A DNA stretch of 64,000 nucleotides from Clostridia bacterium (lineage in GTDB: Bacteria > Bacillota > Clostridia > TANB77 > CAG-508): the NCBI GenBank assembly GCA_022794055.1, contig JAAWEA010000044.1, forward strand, positions 19,006 through 83,005, given 5' to 3'. The notes below the pieces were generated by a model that saw only the letters and a list, made by a program, of their open reading frames with translations, did no database searches and was not told the DNA's origin. The position numbers and the translations under genes are program-made. Below, piece after piece: positions 1 through 48,822 of the stretch. Position 1 is the stretch's first letter. Each line of letters starts with the position of its first letter.

Positions 1-1635
1 GGAATAAATCTTGCTGAAGGATTAGTTGGTAGCATAGACAAATACTTATCACAAAATGTTGAAAGAATAAAATCCTTCATAGTTAATATGTTTAATATAT
101 CAAGTAAAGATTTACAACTAACAGGGAATTTATGGCAAGCATTAGGAGAAATATCAGATGTATTTAAAAGTGATACTGCAAAACAAATAGGAGCGGATAT
201 TATTGCTATGTTTACAAATCCTTTAATGAGCGTTATTGAACTATGTGGAAAATTTGTTCTTGATTTGAAAGGCATATTGTTTCAACCTATTATAGATAAT
301 GCAGAAAAAATAAAAAATACTATTAAAAATGTAATGAAACCAATACAAACATTTACTGGAACTTTAGCAGAAGCGATGACTTATGTTGGAGATAAATGGA
401 ACGAAGTTTATGATGGACATATACATCCTTTAATGGAAAGTTTAAAGGCAGGTTTAAGTGATACTTTTGGAAAATTTCTTGATGTTTATAATACTTATGT
501 CGTACCAATGTTACAAAGAATGGCTGATGGATTTAATGAATTATGGAATACTCATTTAAAACCATTTGTTGATAAGGTTGGAGAACTTATAGGAAGTATT
601 GCAGATGCAATTACGGCTCTTTGGAATAATATTTTAAAACCAGTTGTTGATTGGATAGTACAAAATATTATTCCAGTTTTAGTTCCTATTTTTGAAGGAA
701 TTTGGAATACAATAAGTGCTGTTTTTGGAGCTATAACAGATGTAATAGGTGGAATTATACAAACTTTTCAAGGTTTGATAGACTTTGTTGTAGGAATATT
801 TACTGGAGATTGGAACAAAGCTTGGCAAGGAATATGTGATTTCTTTACTGGAATTTGGAATGCAATTAAAGGAATTTTTTCTGCTATATGGAGTGTAATC
901 ACAGGAATTGTAACAACGGCAGTAAATATTATAAAAGGTATAATAACAACTGTATTTAATGTCATAAAAACCGTTATTACAACAATTTTTAATGCTATAA
1001 AAACAGTTGTAATGACAGTCTGGAATGCTATATCTACTGTAATATCAAATGTAGTAAATGGAATCAAAAATACAATATCGAATGTTTTTAATGGAATAAA
1101 AAATACTATTACTAATATTTTTAATGCTGTAAAAAACACTATTACTAATATTTGGAATGGAATATGGGGAACAATTAAAGGCGTAATAAATAATATTCTA
1201 GGTGGAATCGAAGGTTTTGTTAATGGAATTGTAAAGGGTATTAATATTGTTCTAGGTGGAATAAGTGATGTCGCAAATGCAGTTGGCTCTTTAATAGGAT
1301 TAGATCCTGTTAATTTAAGATTAAATCCAGTGTCATTACCACGCCTTGCACAAGGTGGTTATGTAAAAGCAAACACACCTCAATTAGCAGTTATTGGTGA
1401 TAATAAACATCAAGGAGAGGTTGTTGCACCTGAAGATAAAATGCTAGATATGATTTTGACAGCTTTAAAAATGTTTCAGGATCAAAATTCAACTCAAAAT
1501 AACAAATCTCAAGGACAAAATATTACACTTAACTTTAATGGAACAATGTCACAATTGATTAGAGTATTAAAACCTGAACTAGACAGAGAAAGTAAAAGAA
1601 AAGGTAATAAATTAATTATAGGAGGTACAACATAA
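1..1635 (+). CDS. phage tail tape-measure protein (5'-partial, continues upstream of window)
   Basis: Frame 1 is open from nt 1, so the gene starts upstream of the window. The protein carries long runs of degenerate ~11-aa repeats (GIWNAIKGIFSAIWSVITGIVTTAVNIIKGIITTVFNVIKTVITTIFNAIKT...) typical of tape-measure proteins. It is followed by tail genes and a lysis cassette. Confidence 0.75.
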   Translation, partial: GINLAEGLVGSIDKYLSQNVERIKSFIVNMFNISSKDLQLTGNLWQALGEISDVFKSDTAKQIGADIIAMFTNPLMSVIELCGKFVLDLKGILFQPIIDNAEKIKNTIKNVMKPIQTFTGTLAEAMTYVGDKWNEVYDGHIHPLMESLKAGLSDTFGKFLDVYNTYVVPMLQRMADGFNELWNTHLKPFVDKVGELIGSIADAITALWNNILKPVVDWIVQNIIPVLVPIFEGIWNTISAVFGAITDVIGGIIQTFQGLIDFVVGIFTGDWNKAWQGICDFFTGIWNAIKGIFSAIWSVITGIVTTAVNIIKGIITTVFNVIKTVITTIFNAIKTVVMTVWNAISTVISNVVNGIKNTISNVFNGIKNTITNIFNAVKNTITNIWNGIWGTIKGVINNILGGIEGFVNGIVKGINIVLGGISDVANAVGSLIGLDPVNLRLNPVSLPRLAQGGYVKANTPQLAVIGDNKHQGEVVAPEDKMLDMILTALKMFQDQNSTQNNKSQGQNITLNFNGTMSQLIRVLKPELDRESKRKGNKLIIGGTT

Positions 1636-2021
1636 TGGCGGAAAAATTTGACTTTATAATACTTGATGGACAACAATATAACATTGGTGTATATGCAAAC
1701 ATAAAAGAAAAAGCTGATTTTTTAGATAAATATGCAAATAGAACAGATGATGGAGATTTAAAAAGAGAATTAATTGGTGTATACTTCAATTTTACTGACA
1801 TTAAGTTTGAACCTCAAGTTGATAGTAATTATGATGAATTTGAAAGATTATGGAATAAACTAACAGAACCAGAGGAATTTCATAATGTCAAAATTGCTAA
1901 TTTTGAATTTATGGCTTATTTCAATAATGTTTCAAGAGAAATCTATGATTTTAAAAATGGAAAAGCATACAGAAAAGATATGACTGTAAACTTTACAGCT
2001 AAAAGACCAGCAAGGAGTTGA
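1635..2021 (+). CDS. phage tail component protein (distal tail/baseplate-like, unassigned)
   Basis: 128-aa ORF whose start overlaps the tape-measure stop (ATGA). Its position directly downstream of the tape-measure gene is the only basis for the call. Confidence 0.4.
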   Translation: MAEKFDFIILDGQQYNIGVYANIKEKADFLDKYANRTDDGDLKRELIGVYFNFTDIKFEPQVDSNYDEFERLWNKLTEPEEFHNVKIANFEFMAYFNNVSREIYDFKNGKAYRKDMTVNFTAKRPARS

Positions 2022-3826
2022 TGATTATGAAAACAAAAACACAGATAGAATTTGGATTTGTTGATGTTACAGCAAAGTCTGATAGTCAATTAAGTATTAC
2101 AGATAAACAAACTTTTGTTAATTTGGAAGATTTAAAACGAAACGATATTGAAGAAGTAAAATATGCAACTTTAGAAAGAAATCAATTTGTATTAGATGGA
2201 ACATTTGAATTAATGCCTGATGTATTAAATGATATGTGCTTATGGTCAAGCAGTATGAGTGATGAGTTAGGAATATTTGAAAAATCTCCTATATTAGTAA
2301 TTAACTTTAGTGAACCACATAGCAGTTTAGGTTTAACATTGTTATTTAGCAAAGCTGGAGATTATTGTAATCATTTAAATATAACATATTATGATAAAGA
2401 TAATCAATTAATAAATGATACAGATTTCTATCCTGATAATTATCAATATGTATGTAATAATGTTGTAGAAAACTATCAAAAAATAATTATTATTTTTTAT
2501 GGTACAAATAATCCATATAGATACTTGAAATTATATAAAATATTATATGGAGCAAATAAAGTTTTTGAAGGCGATAATTTAATAAGTGCTAATATACTTG
2601 AGGAAATTGATTTATTAGGTTCAGAGGTTAGTATAAACACTCTAGGTTTTAAAGTTTATTCTGTAGATGATGAATTTAATATTATAAATCCCACTGGTTT
2701 TTATAGTTTATTGCAAGAAAGACAAGCCTTTAAAGTAAAAGAAATATTTACAAAAGAAAATAAAATAATTGATATGGGGGCTTTTTATCTTGATTCTTGG
2801 AAAAATGAAAAAGATAAAATTATGCAATTTGAAGCTATTGATCTAATTGGAATCATTAATAAAACTAACTTTTATGGTGGGATGTATATAAAAGTTAAAT
2901 TTGAAGATTTAATAAAAGAAATTATGTTATCAGCAAATGTAGATGAAAATAACTTTGAAATTCAAGAAGATTTAAAAGATATTGAAATAACAGGTTATAT
3001 TCCAGTTTGTACACATAGAGAAGCTTTACAGCAAGCAGTATTTGCTATTGGAGCAATAGCAGATTGCAGTAGAAGTGATAAAATCAAAATATATACAGTT
3101 GTTTATAAAGAAGATAATAATACTATTAAACAAACTAATGTATTTCAAGGGACAAAAACTATTGAACAAAACGATATAGTAACAGGAGTTTCAATAACAG
3201 CTCATAACTACATCAAAGGTTCTGAAATAACAGAAGTTTACAAAGGAATATTAGAAGCGGGAGATAATATAGTTTTATTTAATGATCCTGTTTCTGATAT
3301 TTCTTGTACAGGTGGAACTATTAAAGAATATAATTGTAATTATGCAATTATACATTGTGTAGCTGATAATACAGAAATTATAGTAAATGGATATAAATAT
3401 GAAGATAATACAAGAATTGTGTTAGTAGAAGTTGAAGAGTTAACTTCTTCAGAAAAGTTAAATACTTTGAAAGTAGAAACTGCATATCTTATAAATAATG
3501 ATAATGCTCAAGCTATTGCTAAAAATGTATTAGATTATTACCAAAAAACATATACTACAAAATTTGATTTTATTCTAAACGAAGAAAAACTAACAGAAGA
3601 TAGTGCGATTGAAAGTAATAGTTTTAATAGGCAATTAGTAGGCCCTATTAAAAAATTAGATATAGATTTAACTGGTGGTTTTTTAGCAAGTGCTGAAATA
3701 AATGCAAGAGTAAGATTACTAACTGTTACAAGAGAAGCTAATTTATCATATAAATTAGCTTCAATTTTAGTAAGAACTACTTATGAACAATTGCCAGTTA
3801 TGGGAGGAGAGGAAAGCAATGGATAA
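2018..3826 (+). CDS. phage tail protein (tail-associated / minor structural protein, about 600 aa)
   Basis: 602-aa ORF translationally coupled to the previous gene (ATGA overlap). Its size and its position after the tape-measure gene are typical of a Tal-like or tail endopeptidase-like protein. Confidence 0.45.
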   Translation: MMIMKTKTQIEFGFVDVTAKSDSQLSITDKQTFVNLEDLKRNDIEEVKYATLERNQFVLDGTFELMPDVLNDMCLWSSSMSDELGIFEKSPILVINFSEPHSSLGLTLLFSKAGDYCNHLNITYYDKDNQLINDTDFYPDNYQYVCNNVVENYQKIIIIFYGTNNPYRYLKLYKILYGANKVFEGDNLISANILEEIDLLGSEVSINTLGFKVYSVDDEFNIINPTGFYSLLQERQAFKVKEIFTKENKIIDMGAFYLDSWKNEKDKIMQFEAIDLIGIINKTNFYGGMYIKVKFEDLIKEIMLSANVDENNFEIQEDLKDIEITGYIPVCTHREALQQAVFAIGAIADCSRSDKIKIYTVVYKEDNNTIKQTNVFQGTKTIEQNDIVTGVSITAHNYIKGSEITEVYKGILEAGDNIVLFNDPVSDISCTGGTIKEYNCNYAIIHCVADNTEIIVNGYKYEDNTRIVLVEVEELTSSEKLNTLKVETAYLINNDNAQAIAKNVLDYYQKTYTTKFDFILNEEKLTEDSAIESNSFNRQLVGPIKKLDIDLTGGFLASAEINARVRLLTVTREANLSYKLASILVRTTYEQLPVMGGEESNG

Positions 3827-4373
3827 TTTAATATATGATAGAACTTTAGACGATGTTGAAACAGCTTTAATTAATGCTGGTAGTAGAATCAACTTAAAAG
3901 GAAGTTACAATTATACTGATTTGAATAGAGTAGAAAATTGGTGCAAGTACATAGAAGAAATATTAAAAAAATATGGCTTTTCTCAAAATTTAGAAATTAA
4001 AACAAATTGGTTTTTAACTGACTATCCTACTAGAAAAGAAATTGACAGAATAAGAAGCAATATAGATACATTAAAAGAATTTTGCTATGCATTAAAAACA
4101 GAAACAATAAGTTATGATAATACTTTAAATTATGAACAAGCAAATATACTAGAAAGAATATTATATGATATAGATGAATACATAAGAAGTCAAAGTAGAA
4201 AATTAGATATACCATATAATTTTGGATTTACTTTAATTCGTAAAAAATTTATTGATTTAATAATAAATACAGATATAATTGATTATTCTTATAAGAAACA
4301 ATTAACAACAGAAAATAATATTTTTGTAATAACAGAAGATGAAAAAATTTTAAGAACAGAATGGGGGGATTAA
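3819..4373 (+). CDS. phage structural/hypothetical protein
   Basis: In-frame ATG at 3819 preceded by GGAGGAGAGG. Lies inside the prophage tail module. Confidence 0.4.
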   Translation: MDNLIYDRTLDDVETALINAGSRINLKGSYNYTDLNRVENWCKYIEEILKKYGFSQNLEIKTNWFLTDYPTRKEIDRIRSNIDTLKEFCYALKTETISYDNTLNYEQANILERILYDIDEYIRSQSRKLDIPYNFGFTLIRKKFIDLIINTDIIDYSYKKQLTTENNIFVITEDEKILRTEWGD

Positions 4374-4376
4374 TAT

Positions 4377-5363
4377 ATGGCTTATGGTGTAACTTACATA
4401 ACTACACAAGGAGCAATTTTAGCAGCTAAAACATTACAAGCAAAAACATTAACATTTTCAAAATTTCAAATAGGTGATGGAACTATTGAAAATTCTAGTA
4501 TGGAAAATATAAAAGCTTTAGATGATTTAGTAAATAAAGTTGTAGAATTTGATATAACAAAAATTTCAAGAGAAACAGATACACAAATAACTGTTAGAGG
4601 ACTATTTAAAAATACAGATGCTGAAGATTCATTTTATTTAAGAGAATTAGGTTTATATGCAATTGATCCTGACACAAATGAAGAAATATTATTCGCATAT
4701 ATAAATTATGGAGATGAAGCAGAGTATATAAATAACTCTATATCAGAGAAAAAAGAGAATTATTATAATATGATTATAGCAGTAGGTAATGCAGATAATG
4801 TAACAATATCGACAGATGAATCTACAGTATATGTAACAGAAAGAGATTTAGAAGAAATTAAACAAAAATTAGCAAATGCAGGAAATAAAAGTGAATATTT
4901 ATTAAAAAATGATATAAAAACTTTTTATATAAAATTAAAAGTTGGAAATCAAAATATTGAATATCCTGAAGGATTTAATAAAAATAATACTATTGTATTG
5001 AAGTGTATGAAAAAAAGTGGAGGTAATTGGATTACTTCAGAAATGGATAATGCAGGGGATATGCACAATGTTGCTAATATATGGTTGCAAGACAATAACA
5101 TTTTTATACAAGGAGAATTTGAAAAAGAATATAAGATAGTATTAATGAAATCAGTTGAATTTGATATAAGTGATTATGAATTAGGTGATATTAACAAGGA
5201 TGGTTCAATAACACAAGAAGATATAAATATAGTTAGCAATTATTTAACTGGATTAGGAACATTGACAGAAGAACAATTCAAATTAGCAGATATGAATGAA
5301 GATGGAATGGTTGATACTGCTGATTTACTTGCACTATCAAAGAAAGTAAATGGAATAACATAG
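4377..5363 (+). CDS. phage tail-collar fibre protein with C-terminal type-I dockerin module
   Basis: The N-terminus (YITTQGAILAAKTLQAKTLTFSKFQIGDGT) matches the phage tail-collar fibre N-domain pattern. The last ~60 aa contain two 22-aa dockerin-type Ca-binding segments, DINKDGSITQEDINIVSNYL and DMNEDGMVDTADLLALSKKV. Confidence 0.65.
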   Translation: MAYGVTYITTQGAILAAKTLQAKTLTFSKFQIGDGTIENSSMENIKALDDLVNKVVEFDITKISRETDTQITVRGLFKNTDAEDSFYLRELGLYAIDPDTNEEILFAYINYGDEAEYINNSISEKKENYYNMIIAVGNADNVTISTDESTVYVTERDLEEIKQKLANAGNKSEYLLKNDIKTFYIKLKVGNQNIEYPEGFNKNNTIVLKCMKKSGGNWITSEMDNAGDMHNVANIWLQDNNIFIQGEFEKEYKIVLMKSVEFDISDYELGDINKDGSITQEDINIVSNYLTGLGTLTEEQFKLADMNEDGMVDTADLLALSKKVNGIT

Positions 5364-5377
5364 AAGGAGGAATATAA

Positions 5378-5956
5378 ATGGCAGATACAATTAAATTAAG
5401 CGAAATGTCAGAAGCAGAAGAAATAAACGAAGATGATTTATTAATGATAGTTCAAAATGGAATTAACAAAAAGATAAAAGCAAAAAAAATGGGAAAAAGT
5501 TCAACAGTAATAGAAGATACTTTAGAAAGTGATAGTACAACAAATGCACTATCAGCTAATCAAGGTAAGTTGTTAAATGAGAAGATAAATAATCAAGAAG
5601 AAGTATTGAATAATATAAATATTTATTCAACAGATGAAATAAATACAGGGAAAAAATGGATAAATGGAAAACCGATGTATAGAAAGATAATTCAATTTAC
5701 ATTATCTAATAATAGTTCAGTAGATTTATCTAGTTTGAATTTTGAAGATGGAATCATTGAATGGGGTAGAATAATATTAACTTCTGGTGGTTTAAAATAT
5801 ATAGATATATTACCATATTCAAGTGGTAGTAGCACATATTGTTGGATGCAAATAGTTCATAATGGTTCAAAATGGCTATTTGCAACTCCTCATACAGCTG
5901 ATGCAAATGGAGCTACTGTTGAAGCTTGTTTATTATACACAAAAACAACAGATTAG
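5378..5956 (+). CDS. phage protein (putative tail fibre-associated / hypothetical)
   Basis: 192-aa ORF with GGAGGA RBS, between the fibre gene and the holin. Confidence 0.35.
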   Translation: MADTIKLSEMSEAEEINEDDLLMIVQNGINKKIKAKKMGKSSTVIEDTLESDSTTNALSANQGKLLNEKINNQEEVLNNINIYSTDEINTGKKWINGKPMYRKIIQFTLSNNSSVDLSSLNFEDGIIEWGRIILTSGGLKYIDILPYSSGSSTYCWMQIVHNGSKWLFATPHTADANGATVEACLLYTKTTD

Positions 5957-5973
5957 AAAGAGAGGGAAAAATT

Positions 5974-6324
5974 ATGGAAGAAATAATGCAAAATATACAT
6001 TTTACAAATATTTGGTGGGCGATAGCAGTTCCACTGATTTTAATGATATTAGATATATTAACAGGATTAGTAATAGCGTGGAGAAATGGAGACTTTAAAA
6101 GTTCAGTAATGAGAACAGGCTTGTCAAAGAAATTTGGCGAGCTTGTTTACGTTTTAATAGGAATATTAACAAAGTTTGCATTAGGAACTGAACTAATTCT
6201 ATATTTTACAGTAGGATATATATGTTTAATGGAAATATCAAGTTTAGCAGAAAACTGCGATAAATTAGGAGTTAAAATGCCAGATAAATTAAAAGAAAAA
6301 TTAAATAATGATAAGGAGGAATAA
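5974..6324 (+). CDS. phage holin
   Basis: ATG at 5974 after GAGAGGGA. Small protein (MEEIMQNIHFTNIWWAIAVPLILMILDILTGLVIAWRNGDF...) with two or three TM helices and a charged C-terminus, immediately upstream of the amidase gene. Confidence 0.7.
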   Translation: MEEIMQNIHFTNIWWAIAVPLILMILDILTGLVIAWRNGDFKSSVMRTGLSKKFGELVYVLIGILTKFALGTELILYFTVGYICLMEISSLAENCDKLGVKMPDKLKEKLNNDKEE

Positions 6325-6326
6325 TT

Positions 6327-7241
6327 ATGAAAATATTATTAATAAGTGGACATGGAGCAGGAGATGTAGGTGCTTGTGGAAATGGTTATAAAGAAGCAGA
6401 TTTGACAAGAGAAGTAGTAAATATATTAGCTCCAAAATTAAGACAATATGCACAAGTAGATATTTATAATCAAAGTAGAAATGCTTATACGGACGTTTGT
6501 AAAGGTAATACTGTTGTAAACTTTGCAAACTATAATTATGTATTTGAAGTACACTTTAATGCTGGAGGTGGAAAAGGAACAGAAATATATGTAACAAGAG
6601 AAGAAAAAGCAACAAATGTAGAACAAAAAGTAATGAACAAATTATCTAAATTTTTCACTGTTAGAGGAGTAAAAAGGCAAAACTTTGCTGTTATAAATTC
6701 TGTTAAGAAAAAAGGTATAAGTTCAGCTTTATTGGAAACATGTTTCATAGATAATGCAAATGATATTAATACATATCAAAACAATAAGGAAGCTATTTGT
6801 AGTGCAATTTGTGAAGGAATTATAGAAGGATTTGGATTAAAACAAAATACATCTAATACATTAGATCTACAATACAAAGCACATATTCAAGATATAGGTT
6901 GGACAGATTGGAAAAATGCAGGAGAAGTAGCTGGAACAACAGGACAAGACAAAAGAGTTGAAGCTATAATCTTACAAGGAAACAATGGATTAGATTTAAA
7001 ATATAGAGTACACATGGAAAATTTAGGCTGGAGTAATTGGATAAGTAATGGAGAAATTGCAGGTACTACTGGTCAAAGTAGAAGAATAGAAGCAATCGAA
7101 ATCCAATCAAATAAAATGTTAGAAGTACAAGAACATATACAGAATGTAGGCTGGATGCCTTCTTCAAAAGGAAATTCAATAAGAGTAGGAACAGAAGGTA
7201 AAGCGTTAAGATTAGAAGCTTTTAAAATTAGAGTTATATAA
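6327..7241 (+). CDS. N-acetylmuramoyl-L-alanine amidase endolysin (amidase_3 type) with three C-terminal cell-wall-binding repeats
   Basis: The N-terminus (MKILLISGHGAGDVGACGNGYKEADLTREV) is the MurNAc-LAA (CwlD-like) signature. The C-terminus has three ~36-aa repeats (HIQDIGWTDWKNAGEVAGTTGQDKRVEAI / HMENLGWSNWISNGEIAGTTGQSRRIEAI / HIQNVGWMPSSKGNSIRVGTEGKALRLEAF). Confidence 0.85.
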   Translation: MKILLISGHGAGDVGACGNGYKEADLTREVVNILAPKLRQYAQVDIYNQSRNAYTDVCKGNTVVNFANYNYVFEVHFNAGGGKGTEIYVTREEKATNVEQKVMNKLSKFFTVRGVKRQNFAVINSVKKKGISSALLETCFIDNANDINTYQNNKEAICSAICEGIIEGFGLKQNTSNTLDLQYKAHIQDIGWTDWKNAGEVAGTTGQDKRVEAIILQGNNGLDLKYRVHMENLGWSNWISNGEIAGTTGQSRRIEAIEIQSNKMLEVQEHIQNVGWMPSSKGNSIRVGTEGKALRLEAFKIRVI

Positions 7242-7245
7242 TGAT

Positions 7246-7284
7246 AGGGCTAGATTGATTAATTTTCAGTCTAGCTCTTTTTTG
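7246..7284 (+). terminator. rho-independent terminator after lysis cassette
   Basis: Hairpin GGCTAGA...TCTAGCT followed by TTTTTTG. Confidence 0.5.
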
Positions 7285-7378
7285 TATTCTTTATTAGATT
7301 ATAAAATTTATTGCATAAAAAAAATACTTAAAATGGATTGTAAGGGTTCGAATTTAAACCACATTTTAAAGTAAATAG

Positions 7379-7627
7379 TTATATTGTTTTATTAATATTT
7401 TTATTTATTTTTACTTTTTTTCTAATTATTTTTTTTCTTATAATAATATCTCCTGGTTCACATTCTAAAATTTTACACATTTTTTCTAATGTTTCAAATT
7501 TAATTCCAGTAGTAGAATTATCCATTAAATGAGATAATGACTGATATCCTCCTTCCATATTTTTAATAAACCAATATTTTGTCTTCTTTTTTTCCTTTAG
7601 TATTTCATTTACTCGTACATATATCAT
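7379..7627 (-). CDS. XRE-family helix-turn-helix transcriptional regulator
   Basis: 82 aa. Contains YQSLSHLMDNSTTGIKFETLEKMCKILECEPGDII, which is Cro/CI-type HTH architecture. Confidence 0.6.
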   Translation of the reverse strand: MIYVRVNEILKEKKKTKYWFIKNMEGGYQSLSHLMDNSTTGIKFETLEKMCKILECEPGDIIIRKKIIRKKVKINKNINKTI

Positions 7628-8298
7628 ATTTTCACCTCACTTTCATTATAGATATTGTAAAACAAAGTATAGTTTATTTTAACTACAATACATTTAAGTT
7701 AAATGTATAATACCTAATTTACAAAATAGGTATAAAAATGATATAATAACACTAGCAATAAAAACAAAAAGAGGTGCTATTGTATGAGCAAAAATATTAT
7801 TGATTCATTAGATAATATAAAGAAACTTATAGAAGAAGAAAACTATCAAGAAGCTATAAATTATATAGAGAAAACAAAAACAGAAATAAAAACAGGAAGA
7901 GATGTATCTAATTATATGGATAGTTTAATAAATGATTTAAAGTAGAAAAAAGTAGAAAAATGTCGAACCTTAAAATGTAATTGTGATAAGGAATATCTAT
8001 GTTAATACCTAACACACAGTATAGTTATTTTTATTTACATAATTTGGTATAATATATAAAGAGATATCTTAAATCTAAATTCATAAGGAGGTTCAATATG
8101 AAATTAAATATATTAGATAAAATGTTATTATATATATTAAAAAAATATTCATATAAAATATATAGGCGTGGGGTACAAGATGGATTTAATTGGAACAATA
8201 AAATAAATTCACAAGGCTGTAACAAGGCTGTACCAATATTAAAAATTAAAAGAAAAGATATAAAGTGAAAAATACTAAATATAAACGGAGAGTAATGA

Positions 8299-9040
8299 AT
8301 GAGAAATATAAAATTAACAATAGAATATGATGGAAAAGACTTTAATGGATGGCAAAAACAGCCCGATAAATTGAATATACAAGGGACAATAGAGCAAGCA
8401 ATTAATAAAGTTACAGGAGAGGAAGTAGAATTAAATGCTTCTGGGAGAACAGATGCTGGTGTACATGCGTTACGGTCAAGTTGCAAATTTTAAAACAAAT
8501 ATGAATATACCAATTGATAAAATATCTATTGCATTAAATTCAAATCTAAAAAAATCAATTAGAATTATAAAGGCAGAAGAAGTAGAGGAAAGATTTCATA
8601 GTAGGTTAAGTTGCAAAAGAAAAACATATAGATATATTATTAATAATTCAGAATATTCATCAGCAATTTATAGAACATTAGAAACACATATTCCTCAAAG
8701 ATTAGATGTTGAAAAAATGAAGATAGCAGCTAAGTTTTTTGAAGGAGAGCATGACTTCAAGGCATTTAAATCAAGTGGAACAAGCAGTAAAAGTAGTATA
8801 AGGACTATTTACAAGGCAGATGTTAGGGAAATTGCTAATAATAGAATCTATATAGAACTCACAGGAAATGGATTTTTATATAATATGGTAAGAATTATTA
8901 GTGGTACATTAGTAGAAGTTGGCATGAATAAAATACAACCAGAGGATATAAAAGATATTATTGAAAAAAAAGATAGAAGCTTAGCAGGAAAAACATTACC
9001 ACCTCATGGATTATATCTGGTAAGTGTAGAATACCAATAA
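8299..9040 (+). pseudogene. truA: tRNA pseudouridine(38-40) synthase TruA, disrupted by +1 frameshift (single C insertion near 8472)
   Basis: ORF 8299..8493 (MRNIKLTIEYDGKDFNGWQKQ...GRTDAGVHAL) and ORF 8435..9040 (...GQVANFKTNMNIPIDK...) are the N and C parts of TruA. Removing the C in TTA-C-GGT restores GRTDAGVHALGQVANF. Confidence 0.75.
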
Positions 9041-9131: not shown

Positions 9132-9701
9132 ATGAATACTTTATTACTAATATTTTTTGCCTTACCTTTAGCAGTAATAATAATATCAATTGCATTACAA
9201 AAAATATTAAAATGTCCTTTTTTAGTAGCTGCAATAATATTTGCAATATTTTTAGTGGTAACTTTTATAATTGGTAATTTGATATTTTTAGTTGCTACAA
9301 TTGCTTATGCAATACTTGCATTCATAACATCAATTATAACTAATATAATCTGTAAAATAATAAGAAAATTAGATGAAAGTGGATGTAAAAGGGAAAGAGA
9401 ATGTTGCTCAAATAGAAGAAATAATGATATTTCTACAGAATTATTATCAATAAATGGAAGTTGTTGTAATAATAATTGTAAGGATAATAACAATTTATTA
9501 ACTATAAGCAGTAATGGATGTAATGGTGTTGAGAATGAATTATTGACTATAAATACAAATTGTAATAGAAATAATCATGGTTCTTGTTCTTGTAGTTGTA
9601 ATACATCAAATGATTCTATAGCAGTTAGGGCAAATGTATTTCCAAATAATAATGCAAATGGAAGAAGCGGAAGTTTTTGTGGATGCTTTAGAAGAAGATA
9701 A
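9132..9701 (+). CDS. membrane protein with Cys/Asn-rich repetitive C-terminal tail (unknown function)
   Basis: About 3 N-terminal TM helices, then ELLSINGSCCNNNCKDNNNLLTISSNGCNGVENELLTINTNCNRNNHGSCSCSCN with an 'LLxI(N/S)' repeat periodicity. RBS AAAAGGAG is present. Confidence 0.45.
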   Translation: MNTLLLIFFALPLAVIIISIALQKILKCPFLVAAIIFAIFLVVTFIIGNLIFLVATIAYAILAFITSIITNIICKIIRKLDESGCKRERECCSNRRNNDISTELLSINGSCCNNNCKDNNNLLTISSNGCNGVENELLTINTNCNRNNHGSCSCSCNTSNDSIAVRANVFPNNNANGRSGSFCGCFRRR

Positions 9702-9925
9702 AACAATTTAAGTTGAGTTTGAAAATCTTTTATATTTGCAATAAGTAGAATTTTAATAGCTTATTTAAAAAGGAAAAGTCCTTTTTAAGTAGGCTGTTTG
9801 AATAAGAATGGGAGTATAGTTATAGTAGTATTGTTTAGGGACTTGCAAATTCATGGATTTTATGCTAAACTAAAAAACAAGGCACTAATTAACGATATTA
9901 AAGTGTTTTAAAAGGAAGAAAAAAT

Positions 9926-10786
9926 ATGTTAGAAATTGTACAAGATACTCTAATAGATGCTATAAAATTATTACCATTTTTATTTATTACATATTTAATT
10001 ATGGAATATATAGAGCATAAAATGGGGAAAAAGTCCAAAAAAGCAATAAAAAAGGCTGGAAAGTTAGGACCAGTTATAGGAAGTATTTTAGGAATATTTC
10101 CACAATGTGGTTTTTCAGTTTCTGCAACAAATCTTTATGCTGGACGAGTTATAACATTAGGAACACTAATTGCAGTATATTTATCAACTTCTGATGAAAT
10201 GTTACCAATTTTTATATCAGAGTCAATTTCAGCTATAGTTATTTTAAAGATTTTAGGAATAAAATTATTAATAGGTATTTTTATTGGTCTCCTAATAGAT
10301 GTAATTTTAAATATTATTAATAAAAATAAAGAAATACAAGAAAATCAAATAGAATTTATGTGTGAGGAAGAACATTGTCATTGCAATCAAAATGGAATTT
10401 TTAAATCAGCTTTGATACATACTTTAAGCATATTTTTATATATAATAATTATTACATTCATAATAAATATAGTAGTACATTTTGTAGGAGAAGACAGAAT
10501 AGCAAGTTTTGTATTGAATAGAAAAATATTAGGACCAATAATTGCAGGAGCTGTAGGATTAATTCCTAATTGTGCATCATCTGTTATTATTACAAATTTA
10601 TATTTAGGAAATGTTATATCATTAGGAAGTATGATGTCAGGACTATTAACAGGAGCAGGGGTTGGACTGGCAGTATTATTTAAGTCAAATAACAAGATAA
10701 AAGAAAATATGTTGATTATTATATTATTGTATGGAATTGGAGTTATTTCTGGAATATTAATGGAATTAATAGGTTTTGCAATATAA
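9926..10786 (+). CDS. two-repeat polytopic permease with conserved Cys motifs (ArsP_2/DUF2899-like putative exporter)
   Basis: Internal duplication: each half carries a '(F)PQCGFS' / 'PNCASS' motif. There are 8 to 10 TM segments. Confidence 0.5.
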   Translation: MLEIVQDTLIDAIKLLPFLFITYLIMEYIEHKMGKKSKKAIKKAGKLGPVIGSILGIFPQCGFSVSATNLYAGRVITLGTLIAVYLSTSDEMLPIFISESISAIVILKILGIKLLIGIFIGLLIDVILNIINKNKEIQENQIEFMCEEEHCHCNQNGIFKSALIHTLSIFLYIIIITFIINIVVHFVGEDRIASFVLNRKILGPIIAGAVGLIPNCASSVIITNLYLGNVISLGSMMSGLLTGAGVGLAVLFKSNNKIKENMLIIILLYGIGVISGILMELIGFAI

Positions 10787-10833
10787 AAAATGGTGATAGA
10801 TTTTAATAACTATCACCATTTATATTTTGTTAA

Positions 10834-10872
10834 AAAAGAGGGAATTTTTGTCCTGGACCCCAAATCCCTTTT
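10834..10872. repeat. solo/mini copy of the GGGTCCAGGAC palindromic repeat family
   Basis: AAAGAGGGAATTTTTGTCCTGGACCCCAAATCCCTTTT matches one arm of the larger elements. It lies between the convergent permease and ATPase genes. Confidence 0.6.
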
Positions 10873-10875
10873 GAT

Positions 10876-13197
10876 TTATTTTTTCTTTTTAAAGTTTACA
10901 ACTATTGCATCTTCATTATCAAATAAATAATTTGAATCTGTTATGTCGGTTTGAATTGGGTTAATTTCATCTTTTTCATCTTTAAAATCAATATTTTTTA
11001 AATTGAATTTTTTCTTTTGCTGCATATCATTATTGGATTTAGTTGATGTTATTACACCATCTGAATATTTTCCAAAATCATAAGATTTTATTTTTTGTGG
11101 TTCTTTATACTTTGATTCTAGATAGTTAAGTCTACCTAATCCAACCATAGGCTTACCATTTTCACCTCTTACTTTATATCCACAGTCTTTAGTAGAAAGT
11201 GTTTGCAATTTTCCAGGTTTAAAATAAGGAACAAATGCCCATTTAATACCATTATATTTAGGTTCCATTTCAAGAGTATCTGTTTTAATATTTTCAGTAT
11301 ATGTCCATTCCCTTTTTTGTCCAAATTCATTACTCCACCACTCTAGTTCATCTATACTACCATGACCTGTAAAGATTTTACTAGCACAATTTGATAGAAT
11401 TGTCTGTTTTAGTTTTTCTTTTTCTTTTGAATTTCCTAATTGCTCTAAGTTTTGAGCTGAAATTGTAGTACCTATTTTATATTTACGATACATAGTAAAT
11501 ATTGGTTCAGTAGCACTGCATATAAAATCTGGAAACTCATCAATATATAAAAAGTTTGGGACTCTAGATTTTTCAGTTCCAGGTCTTCTAAGAACTGCAT
11601 TTTGCATTGAAATTAAGAAGAATAATCCAAATGCTCTATGACTAGATTGTCCTAAATCACCACGTCTAGTACAAACAAATATAATATCTCCATTTTCAAG
11701 CATTTTATCAAAGTCTATATTTTGATGACGATTACATAAAATAGTTTTTACACCAGGTATTCTTAATAATTTATCTAATTGACTTATAATGATATCAATA
11801 TATCTTTCTGTATTTGCTCTTCCAGAACCAGTTTTATAAAAGTTTTTTCTAAAATAAGAAATTTGTGTAGAATATTTTTCTTTTAAATCTTCATCATGAG
11901 CTAGAATTTCACACATTTTTTCTACTAAATCAAAATTCGTAAACATTTTTAACATATCTTCTAAATTTGGTAAAAGTCCATCATTCATTTTTGGATACAT
12001 TTCTTTTAATAAAAGTGAAATGTTCTCAATTGCTTGCATTACAACAGATTCACGGTAAGACTCTTCTGTTTCATCATTAGAGATTGCAAACATTGTTTTT
12101 AGAATTGATGAAATGTTAATTGCAATTTTATTAGCATCATCATAAACAAAAGGATTTAAACCAATAGAACTTTTATCAGCTGGATCTATGATTTTATAGT
12201 CTAATCCAAAATTTTTACAAACAGATATCATGTCTGTTGAAATTTCTTTATCTGGAGACATAACTGTAATACCACAATTTTTATAAGTAATGTCAGAAGA
12301 GCTGTCTAAAATCATTTTTTTCATATATCCTTTGTAGACTTCTTCTTTACCAGTTGTTGGAATTAACATGTTTAAATTAAAATTTTTGTTTAAATAGTCA
12401 TTATCATAAGGGGCATTTAAACTTGCAATTCTAGTTTTTAAAGCAGTATATCCCATTTCTTTTGCAATCTCACGAAAGAAAAATTTTTTTTCTAAATCTC
12501 TCGCAATTAAAGGTTCAAAAACTAAAGATGTTTTTCCAGAACCAGATCCTCCACATACAAACATTGATTGGTATCTAGATGCTTCAGGTATAGTAATCAT
12601 TTTTGCAGTTTCAAAATCTTGACATAAGAATACTTCACAAGTATATGGACCATGACCAGATTTTTTATCAGATAAATCAATTCCACCATAATCCCAAATA
12701 GAACGAACTCTAAGATCATTGTCTTGAACATCATAATATAAGTAATCAAATACTTTAGGAAATAAAATTAGAGGAAATATAAGTGTTAATGAAGTAAGAG
12801 CAGGTCTAATTAAATTTGAGAAATCAGTTATTAGTTCTACATATCCTGGATTTGAAATTAGTAATAACCAAGCTCCCATATTAATCCACTGAGTAAACAT
12901 AGAGACAACTATAGAAGCTAATGCAATCATATACACATAGAAAAATGTTACTTTTTGTTTTTTATTTTTTGAAAATTCAGATGATGGAGAAAATGCAAAA
13001 GCAAATGCTGGACATGCTATTGCAAGTGTATATTGTATTGGTCCCCAATAAGAGTATGATACACCAGTAAATAACATTAATAACATCTCAACAATACGAT
13101 CAACTGCTAAATAAATAGTAATTAATGTTAAGATGTATGTAACAAATGTATTTCTACTAACTCCTAATTTTTTTAAAAATTTATCTATTATTTTCAT
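10876..13197 (-). CDS. membrane-anchored P-loop ATPase, TraG/TraD/VirD4-type (type IV coupling protein-like)
   Basis: About 4 N-terminal TM helices. Walker A is VCGGSGSGKTS. The motif ITVMSPDKE...IIDPADKSSIGLNPF matches the T4CP 'DPKGE...DP...NPL' pattern. Walker B-like is LYIDEFPDF. Confidence 0.6.
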   Translation of the reverse strand: MKIIDKFLKKLGVSRNTFVTYILTLITIYLAVDRIVEMLLMLFTGVSYSYWGPIQYTLAIACPAFAFAFSPSSEFSKNKKQKVTFFYVYMIALASIVVSMFTQWINMGAWLLLISNPGYVELITDFSNLIRPALTSLTLIFPLILFPKVFDYLYYDVQDNDLRVRSIWDYGGIDLSDKKSGHGPYTCEVFLCQDFETAKMITIPEASRYQSMFVCGGSGSGKTSLVFEPLIARDLEKKFFFREIAKEMGYTALKTRIASLNAPYDNDYLNKNFNLNMLIPTTGKEEVYKGYMKKMILDSSSDITYKNCGITVMSPDKEISTDMISVCKNFGLDYKIIDPADKSSIGLNPFVYDDANKIAINISSILKTMFAISNDETEESYRESVVMQAIENISLLLKEMYPKMNDGLLPNLEDMLKMFTNFDLVEKMCEILAHDEDLKEKYSTQISYFRKNFYKTGSGRANTERYIDIIISQLDKLLRIPGVKTILCNRHQNIDFDKMLENGDIIFVCTRRGDLGQSSHRAFGLFFLISMQNAVLRRPGTEKSRVPNFLYIDEFPDFICSATEPIFTMYRKYKIGTTISAQNLEQLGNSKEKEKLKQTILSNCASKIFTGHGSIDELEWWSNEFGQKREWTYTENIKTDTLEMEPKYNGIKWAFVPYFKPGKLQTLSTKDCGYKVRGENGKPMVGLGRLNYLESKYKEPQKIKSYDFGKYSDGVITSTKSNNDMQQKKKFNLKNIDFKDEKDEINPIQTDITDSNYLFDNEDAIVVNFKKKK

Positions 13198-13365
13198 TAT
13201 TTAATATCCCTTCTATTCAATATATTTTTATAAAAGTATACATATATATTATCTTACAAAATGGCGAAAAAAACAAGTATTTTTACAAAAAAAGTTACAT
13301 AAATAGGCATAAAAATAAAATTAGAGCATATAATATTTAAAATTATAAGAAATGGAAGTGTTTTC

Positions 13366-13647
13366 ATGGAAGAAGGATATCAAAAAGAGAGTTTAATTAA
13401 AAATATAACAGAGCTTGAAAAGGAAGAACAATTAGTAAAAAATATAATAAAAACAAGAGAAGAATTGAAAAATAATAATAAAAATTTTGACTCTGCTGAT
13501 TCAGAATTAGTAGATTATTATATTTATCAAATAAAGGCAAATCAAGCAAAATTGGATTATTTAATTAAGCTTGCAAAAGTAAAGGGAATTTCTATAGATA
13601 ATATAAATCAATTAAAATATTCAAATTATGAAGAAGAAATAAGCTAG
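13366..13647 (+). CDS. YaaL-like (DUF2508) small protein
   Basis: 93 aa with the ...ELVDYYIYQIKANQAKLDYLIKLAKVKGI motif. It is followed by bofA, as in the B. subtilis recR-yaaL-bofA arrangement. Confidence 0.45.
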   Translation: MEEGYQKESLIKNITELEKEEQLVKNIIKTREELKNNNKNFDSADSELVDYYIYQIKANQAKLDYLIKLAKVKGISIDNINQLKYSNYEEEIS

Positions 13648-13700
13648 AAGAATATTTGTCCAAAGTCATTCATAAAAATGTAAAAAGATGAAAATGAGGG

Positions 13701-13970
13701 ATGATGATGGATACTAATATAATTACTTATTTAGCTTGTATAAGTTTTTTGTTTTTGTTTGGAAAAATATTTATTCTTCCAATTAAAAAAGTGTTAAAGT
13801 TAGTTTTAAACTCTGTATTGGGAGGAATTACTATATTTTTAATAAACTTAGTAGGAGCAATATGGGGATTCCATATTGGACTAAATTTTTATACAAGTAT
13901 TTTAATTGGGCTGTTAGGATTACCTGGTGCAGTATGTTTGGTTATTATAAAGTTGTTAATGTTTTTTTAA
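13701..13970 (+). CDS. bofA: sigma-K processing regulator BofA
   Basis: 89-aa membrane protein. GGITIFLINLVGAIWGFHIGLNFYTSILIGLLGLPGAVCLVIIKLLMF matches the BofA pattern GG..L..VN..GG..G.H.P.N......GILGIPG. Confidence 0.6.
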   Translation: MMMDTNIITYLACISFLFLFGKIFILPIKKVLKLVLNSVLGGITIFLINLVGAIWGFHIGLNFYTSILIGLLGLPGAVCLVIIKLLMFF

Positions 13971-14119
13971 AAGAGAAAATGGAGAGAAAGAGGGAAAAAG
14001 GGTCCAGGACAAAAAATCCCTCTTTTCTATTTCATTATCTTAAATCTTAAAAAAAGATAAAAATTAAGAGGGATTTTTTGTCCTGGACCCTTTTTCCCTC
14101 TTTCTCTTCATTTTCTCTT
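13971..14119. repeat. palindromic intergenic repeat element, copy 1 (about 150 bp, near-perfect ~50-nt arms)
   Basis: Arms AAGAGAAAATGGAGAGAAAGAGGGAAAAAGGGTCCAGGACAAAAAATCCCTCTT / AAGAGGGATTTTTTGTCCTGGACCCTTTTTCCCTCTTTCTCTTCATTTTCTCTT around a loop TTCTATTTCATTATCTTAAATCTTAAAAAAAGATAAAAATT. Confidence 0.85.
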
Positions 14120-14181
14120 TTAAGATATTGCAATAAATTTTTTTTAGTAGTAAAATACTTAAAAAAGGAGAAAATTTAATT

Positions 14182-14946: not shown

Positions 14947-15195
14947 AGTTTATTTTAGTTGTTTATAGTGTACCATATATGTTTTTATTACATTAGTATC
15001 ATTTCATTAAAGTAAAACTATATAGATTTGGAACATTTATAGAATCAATATATATTTTTATAATTATGATATTATGAGAAAAAATTGTTAATTATATTTA
15101 TGTTATAGGAAGTATTTATGGTATTTCAAAAGCAATAACAGGATTTCCATATAATTTGATTGAATCAGAAAGCATTTCAAATAAAGTTAAAATAA

Positions 15196-15336
15196 AAAGA
15201 AAAAAAGAGGGAAAAAGGGTCCAGGACAAAAAATCCCTCTTTTCTATTTCATTATCTTAAATCTTAAAAAAAGATAAAAATTAAGAGGGATTTTTTGTCC
15301 TGGACCCTTTTTCCCTCTTTTTTTCTTCATTTTCTA
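15196..15336. repeat. palindromic intergenic repeat element, copy 2 (loop identical to copy 1)
   Basis: Same arms as copy 1 and an identical central loop. It overlaps the glmS stop codon. Confidence 0.85.
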
Positions 15337-17672: not shown

Positions 17673-18047
17673 TTAAGAGAAAATGTCATATTGTATTAGC
17701 CTTTGACGTACAAGACTAAGGTTATTTTGCAGAATTCCGCATACAGACATCTCGTAGCTGTATTTGTTAAGGTAATGGTTGACTATCACCATTTGCAGAA
17801 ATCTTATCATTCTTGAAAACATATTTGATGTTTCATATAAGAATACTTCTACAGAAACATTACACCAACTCTGAAACAAATTTGTAGTATCTTCAAGATA
17901 AGCATTAATAAGTTTTGCTAACATATCTAAATCAGCAAGATACTCTTTGTGATTTTTTTTTAGGTCTTCTGCATTATCTGGTGATAGTAGTACAATATAC
18001 ATATTTACTAACTTGCACATTCTCCGTAATTCCCTATTCATTGTCAT
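17673..18047 (-). CDS. hypothetical protein (locally higher GC than surroundings)
   Basis: 124-aa ORF with a GGAGGG RBS and its own terminator. No recognisable motifs. Confidence 0.35.
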   Translation of the reverse strand: MTMNRELRRMCKLVNMYIVLLSPDNAEDLKKNHKEYLADLDMLAKLINAYLEDTTNLFQSWCNVSVEVFLYETSNMFSRMIRFLQMVIVNHYLNKYSYEMSVCGILQNNLSLVRQRLIQYDIFS

Positions 18048-18174
18048 CCCTCCATTTTGTATTTGGAAAATTTAATGCTAATTTTTGCTATTATATCATA
18101 GTTTTACATAAATGTCTATTGCCTATATATTGATTTTAAAGATAAATATATTATATAATACTAAAGGGGATATA

Positions 18175-18687
18175 ATGAAAGAATTAAATGTACTAATAAA
18201 TAATGCAAGACTAGAAAAAAGATTAGACGAAATGGCAAAAGAAATTGAAAAAGATTATAAAGGGAAAGAAATTGTTTTTATAGGAATTTTAAAAGGTTCT
18301 GTTCCATTTATGTGGGAATTAGCAAAAAGAATAAAAAACAATATAATTTTTGAATTCATTGAAGTATCAAGTTATATAAACAACGAAAGTTCAGGAAAAG
18401 TAATATTACATAAAGATATAAAAAGCAGCATAGAGGGGAAAGATGTTATTATAGTAGAAGATATTGTTGATACAGGAAAGACATTAGATTTTTTACTAAA
18501 ACATTTAGAAGAGAAAAATGCGAAAAGTGTAAAAATAGCAACATTATTAAGTAAACCATCAAGAAGAGTAATAGAACTAAATGTAGATTATATAGGCTTC
18601 AAAATTGATGATAAATATGTTGTAGGATTTGGATTAGATGATAACCAGAACTTAAGGAACTTGCCTTATATTGGATATTATGAATAG
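18175..18687 (+). CDS. hpt: hypoxanthine-guanine phosphoribosyltransferase
   Basis: MKELNVLI...VFIGILKGSVPFMWELAKRI...VIIVEDIVDTGKTL is a PRTase type I PRPP-binding motif. RBS AAAGGGGA is present. Confidence 0.9.
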   Translation: MKELNVLINNARLEKRLDEMAKEIEKDYKGKEIVFIGILKGSVPFMWELAKRIKNNIIFEFIEVSSYINNESSGKVILHKDIKSSIEGKDVIIVEDIVDTGKTLDFLLKHLEEKNAKSVKIATLLSKPSRRVIELNVDYIGFKIDDKYVVGFGLDDNQNLRNLPYIGYYE

Positions 18688-20477: not shown

Positions 20478-20486
20478 GAAATTGAA

Positions 20487-20645
20487 AGAATGGAAGAGGG
20501 AAAAAGGGTCCAGGACAAAAAATCCCTCTTTTTTGTGTTATATTATTTTAAACAAAAAAAAAGAGGGATTTTTTGTGTTATATTATTTTAAACAAAAAAA
20601 AGAGGGATTTTTTGTCCTGGACCCTTTTTCCCTCTTCCCTTCTTT
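20487..20645. repeat. palindromic intergenic repeat element, copy 3 (variant loop with internal ~39-bp tandem duplication)
   Basis: Arms GAAGAGGGAAAAAGGGTCCAGGACAAAAAATCCCTCTT / AAGAGGGATTTTTTGTCCTGGACCCTTTTTCCCTCTTC. The loop contains GTGTTATATTATTTTAAACAAAAAAAAGAGGGATTTTTT twice. Confidence 0.85.
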
Positions 20646-43620: not shown

Positions 43621-43634
43621 AATGATTCACCTCT

Positions 43635-48536: not shown

Positions 48537-48551
48537 CCAAAAGTTATAATA

Positions 48552-48590
48552 AAGAGGGGAGCCATTTTGAAATAGGCTCCCCTCTCTTTT
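48552..48590. terminator. bidirectional rho-independent terminator
   Basis: AGAGGGGAGCC-ATTTTGAAATA-GGCTCCCCTCT followed by CTTTTG. Confidence 0.5.
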
Positions 48591-48609
48591 GCAAAAAAGT
48601 TACTTAATG

Positions 48610-48822
48610 TTATCCAATCTCGCCATCAAGATATCCCAAACTATAGCCTATTTTCATTGAAACAAATACTATAAAGAATACTATAATAAAAAGGATTAAA
48701 AAGCTTATGGGAGGTATGTCAATAGAATATTCTTGACATATCAAATATACCACAAGAGTAGCGAAAACAGAAATTACAGTGTCGATGAATAAGATAACGA
48801 GTAAAATATTTTTTTTGCGCAT
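48610..48822 (-). CDS. small two-TM membrane protein (hypothetical)
   Basis: 70-aa ORF. Support is weak. Confidence 0.25.
   Translation of the reverse strand: MRKKNILLVILFIDTVISVFATLVVYLICQEYSIDIPPISFLILFIIVFFIVFVSMKIGYSLGYLDGEIG

Follow-up and report, generated by a model that had tools for sequence, protein, structure and literature searches.

A very probably domesticated VirD4-type coupling protein gene at a conserved chromosomal locus of uncultured gut Clostridia

The coupling protein gene and its locus

The window analyzed here (a stretch of 64,000 nt, positions 19,006 to 83,005 of the forward strand of contig JAAWEA010000044.1, assembly GCA_022794055.1, from a Clostridia bacterium) carries on its minus strand, at 10876-13197, a gene for a protein resembling the type IV coupling proteins (T4CPs) of conjugation. 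The open reading frame (ORF) was taken from the ORF list and its translation; it starts with ATG, encodes 773 amino acids (aa), and ends with a stop codon at 10876-10878. A ribosome-binding site (GAAGGG, 13208-13213, minus strand) lies 10 nt before the ATG, and an equivalent AAGGGG or GAAGGG was found at orthologous loci. Taken together, Pfam profiles, Foldseek searches, ratios of nonsynonymous to synonymous substitution (dN/dS), and locus comparisons make it very probable that this is a fixed, functional, domesticated T4CP gene and no relic.

All protein features described here are encoded on the minus strand. The N-terminal membrane domain (aa 15-157, 12727-13155) has about four transmembrane helices, placed at aa 15-44, 53-69, 79-114, and 127-157 by Kyte-Doolittle hydropathy windows and, in agreement, by the AlphaFold model (predicted local distance difference test score [pLDDT], ~80-90), and it is kept across orthologues. 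The Walker A motif GGSGSGKTS (aa 216-224, 12526-12552) is near-invariant in the window protein and its 59 orthologues, and residues G216, G221, K222, and T223 are invariant or near-invariant in an alignment with distant relatives. In the translation, SPDKE follows at aa 314-318 and IDPADKSSIGLNPF at aa 337-350. An all-alpha domain, all-helical in the AlphaFold model, is inserted in the nucleotide-binding domain at approximately aa 355-500 (11698-12135), and the Walker B motif LYIDEFP (about aa 549-555, 11533-11553), then RKYKIGTTISAQNLEQL, falls inside the Pfam TraG-D_C match (aa 550-637), with YIDEFPDF at aa 551-558 of the translation. Walker A, Walker B, and a downstream R-K-x-x-x-G...Q..EQL segment are all conserved in the orthologues and the distant relatives. 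The model places a beta-rich segment at aa 627-690, and the C-terminal tail (aa 715-773, 10879-11055), predicted to be disordered (pLDDT, <50), terminates in the conserved motif DPIQTD..DS.Y.FDNEDAIVVNFKKKK.

Family membership was tested with the curated gathering scores of the Pfam models for the VirD4/TraG/TraD/TrwB family (PF02534, PF12696, and PF10412). TraG-D_C (39.4 bits; cut-off, 22) and T4SS-DNA_transf (27.7 bits; cut-off, 20.1) were passed, TrwB_AAD_bind remained below its cut-off (17.8 bits; cut-off, 20.5), and FtsK_SpoIIIE, HerA, and DUF87 gave no Pfam match at E values up to 1. The best NCBIfam match, over aa 308-628, was to NF045973 (conju_CD1115, a VirD4-like conjugal transfer protein) at 51.7 bits, far under the equivalog cut-off of 250, and membership in that equivalog was ruled out. 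A phmmer search of the protein against the PDB gave no match. The AlphaFold model, obtained from a 23-sequence alignment (mean pLDDT, 82.6), consists of the membrane domain, a RecA-like core with the all-helical insertion, the beta-rich segment, and the disordered tail. The best Foldseek matches of this model were Cagbeta (8dol, 1.6e-11), TrwB (1e9s, 2e-11), and DotL (6sz9, 2e-7), with TM-scores to T4CPs of 0.57-0.70 (normalized to the target), a sequence identity of 12-15%, and alignments covering ~510-560 columns for TrwB and Cagbeta; structures of DndH, HerA, and VirB4 ranked below the T4CPs (3e-7 to 7e-6). Because T4CP Pfam models pass and T4CP structures come first in the fold search, the product is classified from profile and predicted fold as a true VirD4/TrwB-type coupling protein, a putative membrane-anchored P-loop ATPase. 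A HerA/FtsK-type translocase was ruled out, there being no such Pfam match and the HerA and VirB4 structures ranking below all T4CP structures.

The product shares with TrwB (of R388), VirD4, Cagbeta, and DotL the Pfam families, the fold with an inserted all-alpha domain, the N-terminal anchor, and the Walker A and B motifs, and a disordered C-terminal tail with a conserved end peptide is a further likeness to canonical T4CPs. It differs from them in having about four transmembrane helices (TrwB has two) and the extra beta-rich segment, and its gene is chromosomal, vertically inherited, and, in this genome, unlinked to a relaxase or a type IV secretion system (T4SS).

On one side the gene is convergent with a gene for an ArsP_2 ("arsenic efflux") permease (9926-10786, plus strand; Pfam ArsP_2; NCBIfam NF037962, 311.6 bits), a conserved neighbor whose functional link to the T4CP gene is unproven. 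On the other side lie yaaL/DUF2508 (13366-13647) and bofA (13701-13970), both annotated with Pfam and NCBIfam. This annotation covered the ORFs at window positions 1-22 kb and the large ORFs as far as position 59 kb. A tblastn search of the 64 kb with plasmid VirB4-like, TraC-like, Replic_Relax, and S1 proteins gave a single match, the S1 domain of RNase R. The usual context of a T4CP gene, linkage to a relaxase and to a VirB4/mating-pair formation (MPF) channel, is lacking at the window locus. Recombinase or att features were not found beside the gene either, the sole nearby mobile DNA being an unrelated prophage.

An earlier reading of the window made from its letters and ORF list (here, the sequence-only reading) had described a 773-aa TraG/VirD4-like coupling ATPase with the motifs quoted above and about four N-terminal helices, next to a permease and yaaL-bofA and with no conjugation genes nearby. 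The ORF and all of the motifs are present in the translation, and hydropathy and the AlphaFold model reproduce the helices. The family assignment is upheld by Pfam and Foldseek, the profile searches that it had proposed having passed for TraG-D_C and T4SS-DNA_transf and given no match for FtsK_SpoIIIE or DUF87; the HerA/FtsK-type best match that it had named as a refutation did not appear. The neighbors proved to be ArsP_2, yaaL/DUF2508, and bofA, and the lack of conjugation genes was confirmed by ORF profiling and tblastn. It had also suggested a look for remnants of an integrative and conjugative element (ICE); no integrase or att features were found near the gene.

Orthologues, promoter, and chromosomal relatives

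One genome per species was scanned for orthologues, and full-length ones (50-82% identity) were found at 59 species loci, all from metagenome-assembled genomes (MAGs) of uncultured gut Clostridia and including one complete chromosome of 1.55 Mb (OV788638.1). The gene adjoins bofA-yaaL in 44 of the 59 loci and ArsP_2 in 50. The ArsP_2 gene occurs in two orientations, either convergent, as in the window, or, in ~10 species, co-directional and immediately upstream, and in these co-directional species the other neighbors are different core genes (dnaJ, trpS, obg, NUDIX, and P-type ATPase). Unbiased clustering of all neighborhood ORFs yielded no further conserved partner, and no T4SS gene was found within 10 kb of the orthologue in the 59 species loci. 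In seven species pairs, dN/dS was 0.07-0.18, the same range as for ArsP2, glmS, yaaL, and bofA. Pairwise identities of the T4CPs track those of ArsP2, glmS, uvrC, truA, bofA, and yaaL (Pearson, 0.80-0.94), and the macro-synteny htrA-rnhB-pdp ... T4CP ... murJ-HU is common to sister lineages. Judged from these comparisons, the gene is a vertically inherited, single-copy chromosomal gene under purifying selection, in a synteny that is conserved across the 59 species loci. The protein probably now serves the host, since its gene has been kept intact and vertically inherited without mating machinery nearby. An ICE or an integrative and mobilizable element (IME) was rejected: no recombinase or att features lie beside the gene, and the synteny in 59 species, the core-like distances, and the low dN/dS oppose mobility. 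One MAG (assembly CAKPLT01) contained two T4CP loci (L041 and L044; L-numbers denote the loci compared) with colinear flanks of 78-87% nucleotide identity and proteins 73% identical. Paralogy was ruled out by the colinear flanks, the bin being a mixture of two related species.

Upstream of the gene, at 13239-13277 (minus strand), sequence and conservation define a block that fits a sigma-A-type promoter, reads CTTGTTTTTTTCGCCATTTTGTAAGATAATATATATGTA, and occurs once in the window. It comprises a -35 element (TTGTTT) and a -10 element (GATAAT), separated by a 17-nt spacer that carries TRTAG as the -16 element, and the conserved ATATATGTA comes after the -10 element. In 58 of the 59 species loci the block directly precedes the orthologue, and it is also found ahead of relatives in distant chromosomal lineages that are only 36-52% identical in protein; equivalent sites are located among L001-L059, L065-L068, and L070-L073, and the block is absent at plasmid T4CP genes. 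The best 35-column conservation was 0.90 (57 loci), compared with 0.60-0.80 upstream of neighboring genes, and at the level of sequence the block is more conserved than the protein encoded downstream. In co-directional loci the block stands between ArsP_2 and the T4CP gene, which implies that the latter is a transcription unit of its own. The 9 nt past the -10 element (ATATATGTA) are nearly invariant. This near-invariance may point, beyond a promoter alone, to a binding site for a regulator or for the Replic_Relax (PF13814) protein (RR) introduced below. The block upstream of bofA (~13650-13700 and orthologous loci) has the consensus ATATTTGTCCATATTTAATCATACAAATGTATAAA, a conservation of 0.80, and a CATACA-type -10 element of the kind usual in promoters of mother-cell sporulation sigma factors, the sigma assignments here following the promoter types of Bacillus and Clostridium.

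An exhaustive HMMER search of 1.84 billion representative proteins gave 3977 relatives, and the full-length ones, membrane domain included, grade down to ~29% identity. The closest relatives on mobile elements are encoded on large Clostridium plasmids; these T4CPs, WP_264647377.1 of Clostridium beijerinckii p1 and WP_172688299.1 of Clostridium botulinum pFWSKR40E1, show 28-30% identity across 84-87% of the query. TraC-like and VirB4-like (DUF87) genes are near the T4CP gene on the C. botulinum plasmid. The T4CP gene of the C. beijerinckii plasmid has upstream of it two genes, one for an S1-domain protein and one for a hypothetical protein, and both are homologous to genes (S1 and RR) that accompany chromosomal relatives, a likeness to the sister lineages. 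The plasmid T4CPs differ from the window protein in being longer (923-1001 aa), in lacking the tail motif and the promoter block, and in being encoded amid plasmid and recombinase genes.

Chromosomal relatives of 36-52% identity were found at L065-L068, L070-L077, and 31 metagenome loci. Here the T4CP gene lies tail-to-tail with a gene for an RR protein of ~311 aa, usually preceded by an S1-domain gene. The RR protein passes Pfam Replic_Relax (27-31 bits; cut-off, 25.3), and PF13814 is the MOBC relaxase family, related to PD-(D/E)XK nucleases (PMC5357655, Table 1; PMC3424549; PMC12857230). At L065 (a 38% relative), TraC-like and VirB4-like genes are found 8 kb away (554 aa aligned with the plasmid DUF87 protein at 35% identity), and by its gene content the locus retains the look of a complete conjugative module. 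The genes of L070-L077 and of numerous metagenome loci run htrA-x-rnhB-pdp-...-rpsB-tsf-X-rluB-rluB'-(S1)-RR, then the T4CP gene on the opposite strand, then murJ-HU, and no integrase was found at loci of this type; in L074 and L075, yaaL-bofA lies 9 kb upstream in the same locus. The window clade has the htrA-x-rnhB-pdp side, and some of its species also have murJ-HU; the common flanks therefore place the T4CP gene in an orthologous chromosomal region. Its position by yaaL-bofA and ArsP_2 is, on this synteny, the apparent product of a local rearrangement that removed the rpsB...RR segment. The adjacency to yaaL-bofA stressed in the sequence-only reading is real, but the emphasis was misleading, as sister lineages have yaaL-bofA ~9 kb off in the same ancestral region. 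RR and S1 homologues accompany the T4CP gene in sister lineages as well as on the C. beijerinckii plasmid, which is the main clue and one that the window alone could not give to the sequence-only reading, and for this reason a plasmid-type module of conjugative T4CP, MOBC relaxase, and S1 protein is the best reading of the ancestral unit. The sister lineages have the gene content of the relaxase and coupling-protein modules of IMEs (Coluzzi et al. 2017, PMC5357655), with the non-canonical relaxase MOBC/PF13814. Unlike IMEs, they show no integrase and no boundaries, the genes are wedged between core genes and vertically inherited over deep divergence, and in the window clade the relaxase gene is not adjacent to the T4CP gene.

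RR loci were seen at L053, L065-L068, and L070-L164, RR usually following the S1-domain gene and rluB-rluB', and one exact RR protein occurs on 841 contigs. Where the T4CPs are ~50% identical, RR is 77-91% identical, compared with ~90% for HU, ~80% for tsf, ~69% for rluB, and ~46% for murJ; by these identities RR is among the most constrained proteins of these genomes. A relaxase-family protein would not be expected to show such conservation, which suggests that RR has a housekeeping role. At 13 RR loci whose flanks extend 6 kb or more to either side, rluB-S1-RR stands without a T4CP gene. One of these, L135, is colinear over ~9.4 kb with window positions 38.8-48.5 kb (84% protein identity for RNase R, 79-80% for the last two genes) and runs on directly into S1-RR, with no T4CP gene within 10 kb; the window has a 550-bp spacer and typA instead. 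A relaxed search of this junction in the window (48537-49084) and of the rest of the window gave no remnant of RR or S1. The colinearity of L135, the prevalence of RR, and the equal conservation of the T4CP tail motif in the window clade and in clades with an adjacent RR (the plasmid T4CPs have no such motif) together suggest that S1-RR is retained in genomes of the window clade, at a site not linked to the T4CP gene, and that docking of a conserved partner by the T4CP continues.

An apparent link between L107 and L018 was ruled out at the ORF level (57-66% identity, with synteny ending), and the flanks of L163 have nothing in common with T4CP loci. In L135, an intergenic stretch of ~400 nt (17967-18365) is 78-79% identical to L010, L016, and L017 at ~9384-9786. 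In these three window-clade loci the stretch is additional sequence separating yaaL from the T4CP gene, possibly a small RNA gene or a mobile repeat.

Proposed function and alternatives

The explanation that we favor, with a probability of about 0.6, is that a captured conjugative T4CP was fixed in the clade and works for the host with a substrate prepared by RR and S1. Comparative evidence supports an origin in which a conjugative module of T4CP, RR, and S1, of the type carried by Clostridium plasmids, was captured by the common ancestor of a large group of uncultured, low-GC, spore-forming Clostridia of the gut. The T4CP gene has since been inherited vertically as a single-copy gene with its own highly conserved sigma-A-type promoter and under purifying selection. 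In the window clade, a local rearrangement would have split the T4CP gene from the RR/S1 pair and left it between ArsP_2 and yaaL-bofA. By analogy with TrwB, VirD4, TraD, and DotL, the protein may form a hexameric ring ATPase at the membrane. As in known T4CPs, the all-alpha domain and the conserved C-terminal tail would recruit a protein or nucleoprotein substrate, most likely DNA processed by the highly conserved RR/S1 pair, possibly encoded elsewhere in the genome. ATP hydrolysis would then hand this substrate to the membrane or move it across, again as in known T4CPs, and the job would be a host function with no transfer of a mobile element. The RR-coupled DNA handling is the more tentative part of this explanation, and we hold it at somewhat less than even odds. 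The capture and host service of the T4CP agree with two suggestions of the sequence-only reading, a domesticated translocase or part of an undescribed system.

Several results weigh against this explanation. Of the 59 orthologous loci, 58 have no RR, S1-RR pair, VirB4, or channel component at a distance of up to 10 kb from the gene, and no relaxase, VirB4, or other T4SS gene was found among the profiled window ORFs. The co-occurrence of RR and a T4CP-like gene in one window-clade genome was not found in the locus comparisons. RR is also far more conserved than the T4CP, so it may have a T4CP-independent role, with the adjacency a historical leftover. We know of no T4CP that translocates anything alone.

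The main rival is that the protein is an ordinary, active T4CP that serves a T4SS or ICE elsewhere in the chromosome, in chromosomal conjugation or with a mating pore supplied in trans, and looks orphaned only for want of linkage between the loci. In its favor, a VirB4/MPF channel is normally required by T4CPs, TraC-like and VirB4-like genes occur 8 kb from the L065 relative (38% identity), and extensive use of T4SSs in trans is documented (PMC3158045). The locus data nevertheless make this rival unlikely. T4SS genes are missing not only within 10 kb in the 59 species loci and among the profiled window ORFs but also around the ~45 RR loci whose flanks are long enough. The vertical inheritance, core-like constraint, and fixed promoter are unlike mobile-element cargo, and the genomes of the clade are small (1.55 Mb for OV788638.1).

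Two further rivals start from the neighboring genes, and both are improbable. ArsP_2 is the most constant neighbor (50-51 loci; median gap, 85 nt), and the pair persists in two orientations and two unrelated flanking contexts, so that ArsP_2 and the T4CP could form a two-gene membrane transport unit in which the ATPase energizes or gates the permease. In the window, however, the genes converge, with a separate terminator for each, and even in co-directional loci the conserved T4CP promoter sits between them. The T4CP is retained in sister lineages that have no ArsP_2 beside it, and the 10-kb distance between the two in L067 points to regional synteny. To our knowledge, no T4CP energizes a permease.

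The other neighbor-based rival is a sporulation-specific translocase tied to yaaL-bofA, moving, for example, DNA or protein between the mother cell and the forespore. The host forms spores, as judged from bofA and, at 41316-45341, a gerA/gerB/gerC operon; sporulation employs FtsK-superfamily pumps such as SpoIIIE; and the T4CP-like gene is divergent from yaaL-bofA in 43-44 loci. Its promoter, however, is of the sigma-A type (-35, -16, and -10 elements), whereas the bofA block has the CATACA-type sporulation -10 element, and in group-2 species and sister lineages the T4CP gene is not beside yaaL-bofA, the adjacency being explained by regional synteny.

A component of an anti-phage or anti-plasmid defense system is very improbable: the sole PADLOC match, to mad8 (E value, 2.7e-5; 21.8 bits), is a weak one limited to the generic ATPase core, no other defense gene is adjacent (PADLOC-DB 2.0 gave no match for ArsP_2 and DUF2651), the prophage nearby is absent from orthologous loci, and the gene is core and syntenic, outside variable islands. 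The relic of a decayed ICE that the sequence-only reading had also offered, here taken to include a decayed IME and to lack any present function, would fit an isolated conjugation-type gene that has no partners and whose nearest mobile relatives are plasmid T4CPs, but this equally improbable reading is already refuted by the selection and synteny data, the ORF being full length, single copy, and syntenic in 59 species, with catalytic motifs kept, purifying selection (dN/dS, 0.07-0.18), a conserved promoter, and no integrase or att.

A wider form of the explanation favored here, capture followed by host service, is that a whole order-level clade of gut Clostridia took over the DNA-processing half of conjugation (a VirD4-type ATPase, a MOBC RR nuclease, and an S1-fold protein) and domesticated it as a T4SS-independent housekeeping set for handling DNA or nucleoprotein, whose components still cooperate even at loci where, as in the window, the genes have come to lie apart. 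We regard this wider form as speculative and rather doubtful. The roles of such a set could be the export of chromosomal or extracellular DNA, chromosome maintenance, or spore-related DNA handling, and if the trio does act together without a secretion channel, this would be an undescribed T4CP activity. The case is not yet mechanistically strange; it is a clear, well-supported instance of conjugation components having been domesticated over the long term, in uncultured bacteria that are abundant in the gut. No description of this T4CP family, or of a comparable core-genome T4CP in Clostridia, came out of literature searches on orphan and domesticated T4CPs of Firmicutes and Clostridia; coverage was incomplete, so that this is absence of evidence only. 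T4SS exaptation has been proposed in general terms (PMC3158045). Exaptation of a coupling protein and relaxase pair alone is rarely documented, and the T4CP with its MOBC relaxase-like and S1 proteins offers a tractable case of exaptation of conjugation parts for the host. Coupling proteins serve as markers of conjugative and mobilizable elements and are counted as such in CONJscan and MOB-typing. A bona fide VirD4-type T4CP that behaves as a core gene in dozens of uncultured gut species, with its position, promoter, and tail peptide long held, would be mis-scored as a mobile-element remnant in mobilome surveys of gut metagenomes.

Terminators, prophage, and other features of the window

The 89-nt intergenic region 3' of the T4CP-like gene contains two hairpins, one for each of the convergent genes. 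The terminator-like hairpin that directly follows the T4CP stop codon (10837-10873, minus strand) represents one unit of a palindromic repeat, with the core TTGTCCTGGACCC, that is dispersed in the window, and it corresponds to the mini copy that the sequence-only reading had placed against the 3' end of the gene; the ArsP_2 gene has its own terminator at 10788-10821, located by sequence. The repeat core occurs at 11 sites in the window, compared with 0.11 expected by chance. Full palindromes of ~150 nt are found in intergenic positions at 13970-14120, 15188-15336, 20485-20645, and 56559-56713, between convergent or tandem genes; they are near-perfect, with arms of 55-75 nt that are 82-100% complementary, and the hairpin unit is built as AGAGGGA-T(n)-GTCCTGGACCC-T(n)-TCCCTCT. 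They form a family resembling repetitive extragenic palindromes or miniature inverted-repeat transposable elements, which probably doubles as bidirectional terminators.

Past bofA, the window continues with a metallo-beta-lactamase hydrolase gene, glmS, a phosphoribosyltransferase gene, and uvrC. On the other flank, DUF2651 and truA are followed by a helix-turn-helix (HTH) gene and the tail/lysis end of a prophage. The remainder of the window consists of core genes, among them RNase R, the gerA/B/C operon (41316-45341), typA, LonC, and an N6-methylase gene.

The prophage end (1-7627), to which the sequence-only reading had made no reference, encodes a tape-measure-like protein, a dockerin-domain tail fiber (4377-5363), a tail-fiber repeat protein, a holin (5926-6324), an endolysin with Amidase_3 and ChW domains (6327-7241), and a Cro/C1 HTH protein (7379-7627). 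Its tail/lysis part stops at 7241, 3.6 kb downstream of the T4CP-like gene. It occupies the site at which 27-32 related species carry cdaA-pdp-rnhB-x-htrA, and it is considered unrelated to the T4CP-like gene because other species have these core genes there. The truA ORF (8435-9040) has 201 aa, compared with an orthologue median of 246 aa, and its 5' end is overlapped by an opposite-strand ORF of 151 aa (8031-8486) with no family match; the TruA N-terminus may be truncated beside the prophage junction.

Two adjacent ORFs at 23548-23931 (127 aa) and 23948-24280 (110 aa) match different parts of an RluB-type pseudouridine synthase with ~34% identity and may be a split or frameshifted gene. At 35845-37893 (minus strand), a 682-aa protein combines a weak match to the VRR-NUC nuclease domain with an N6 DNA methylase domain and may be a fused restriction-modification or defense enzyme.

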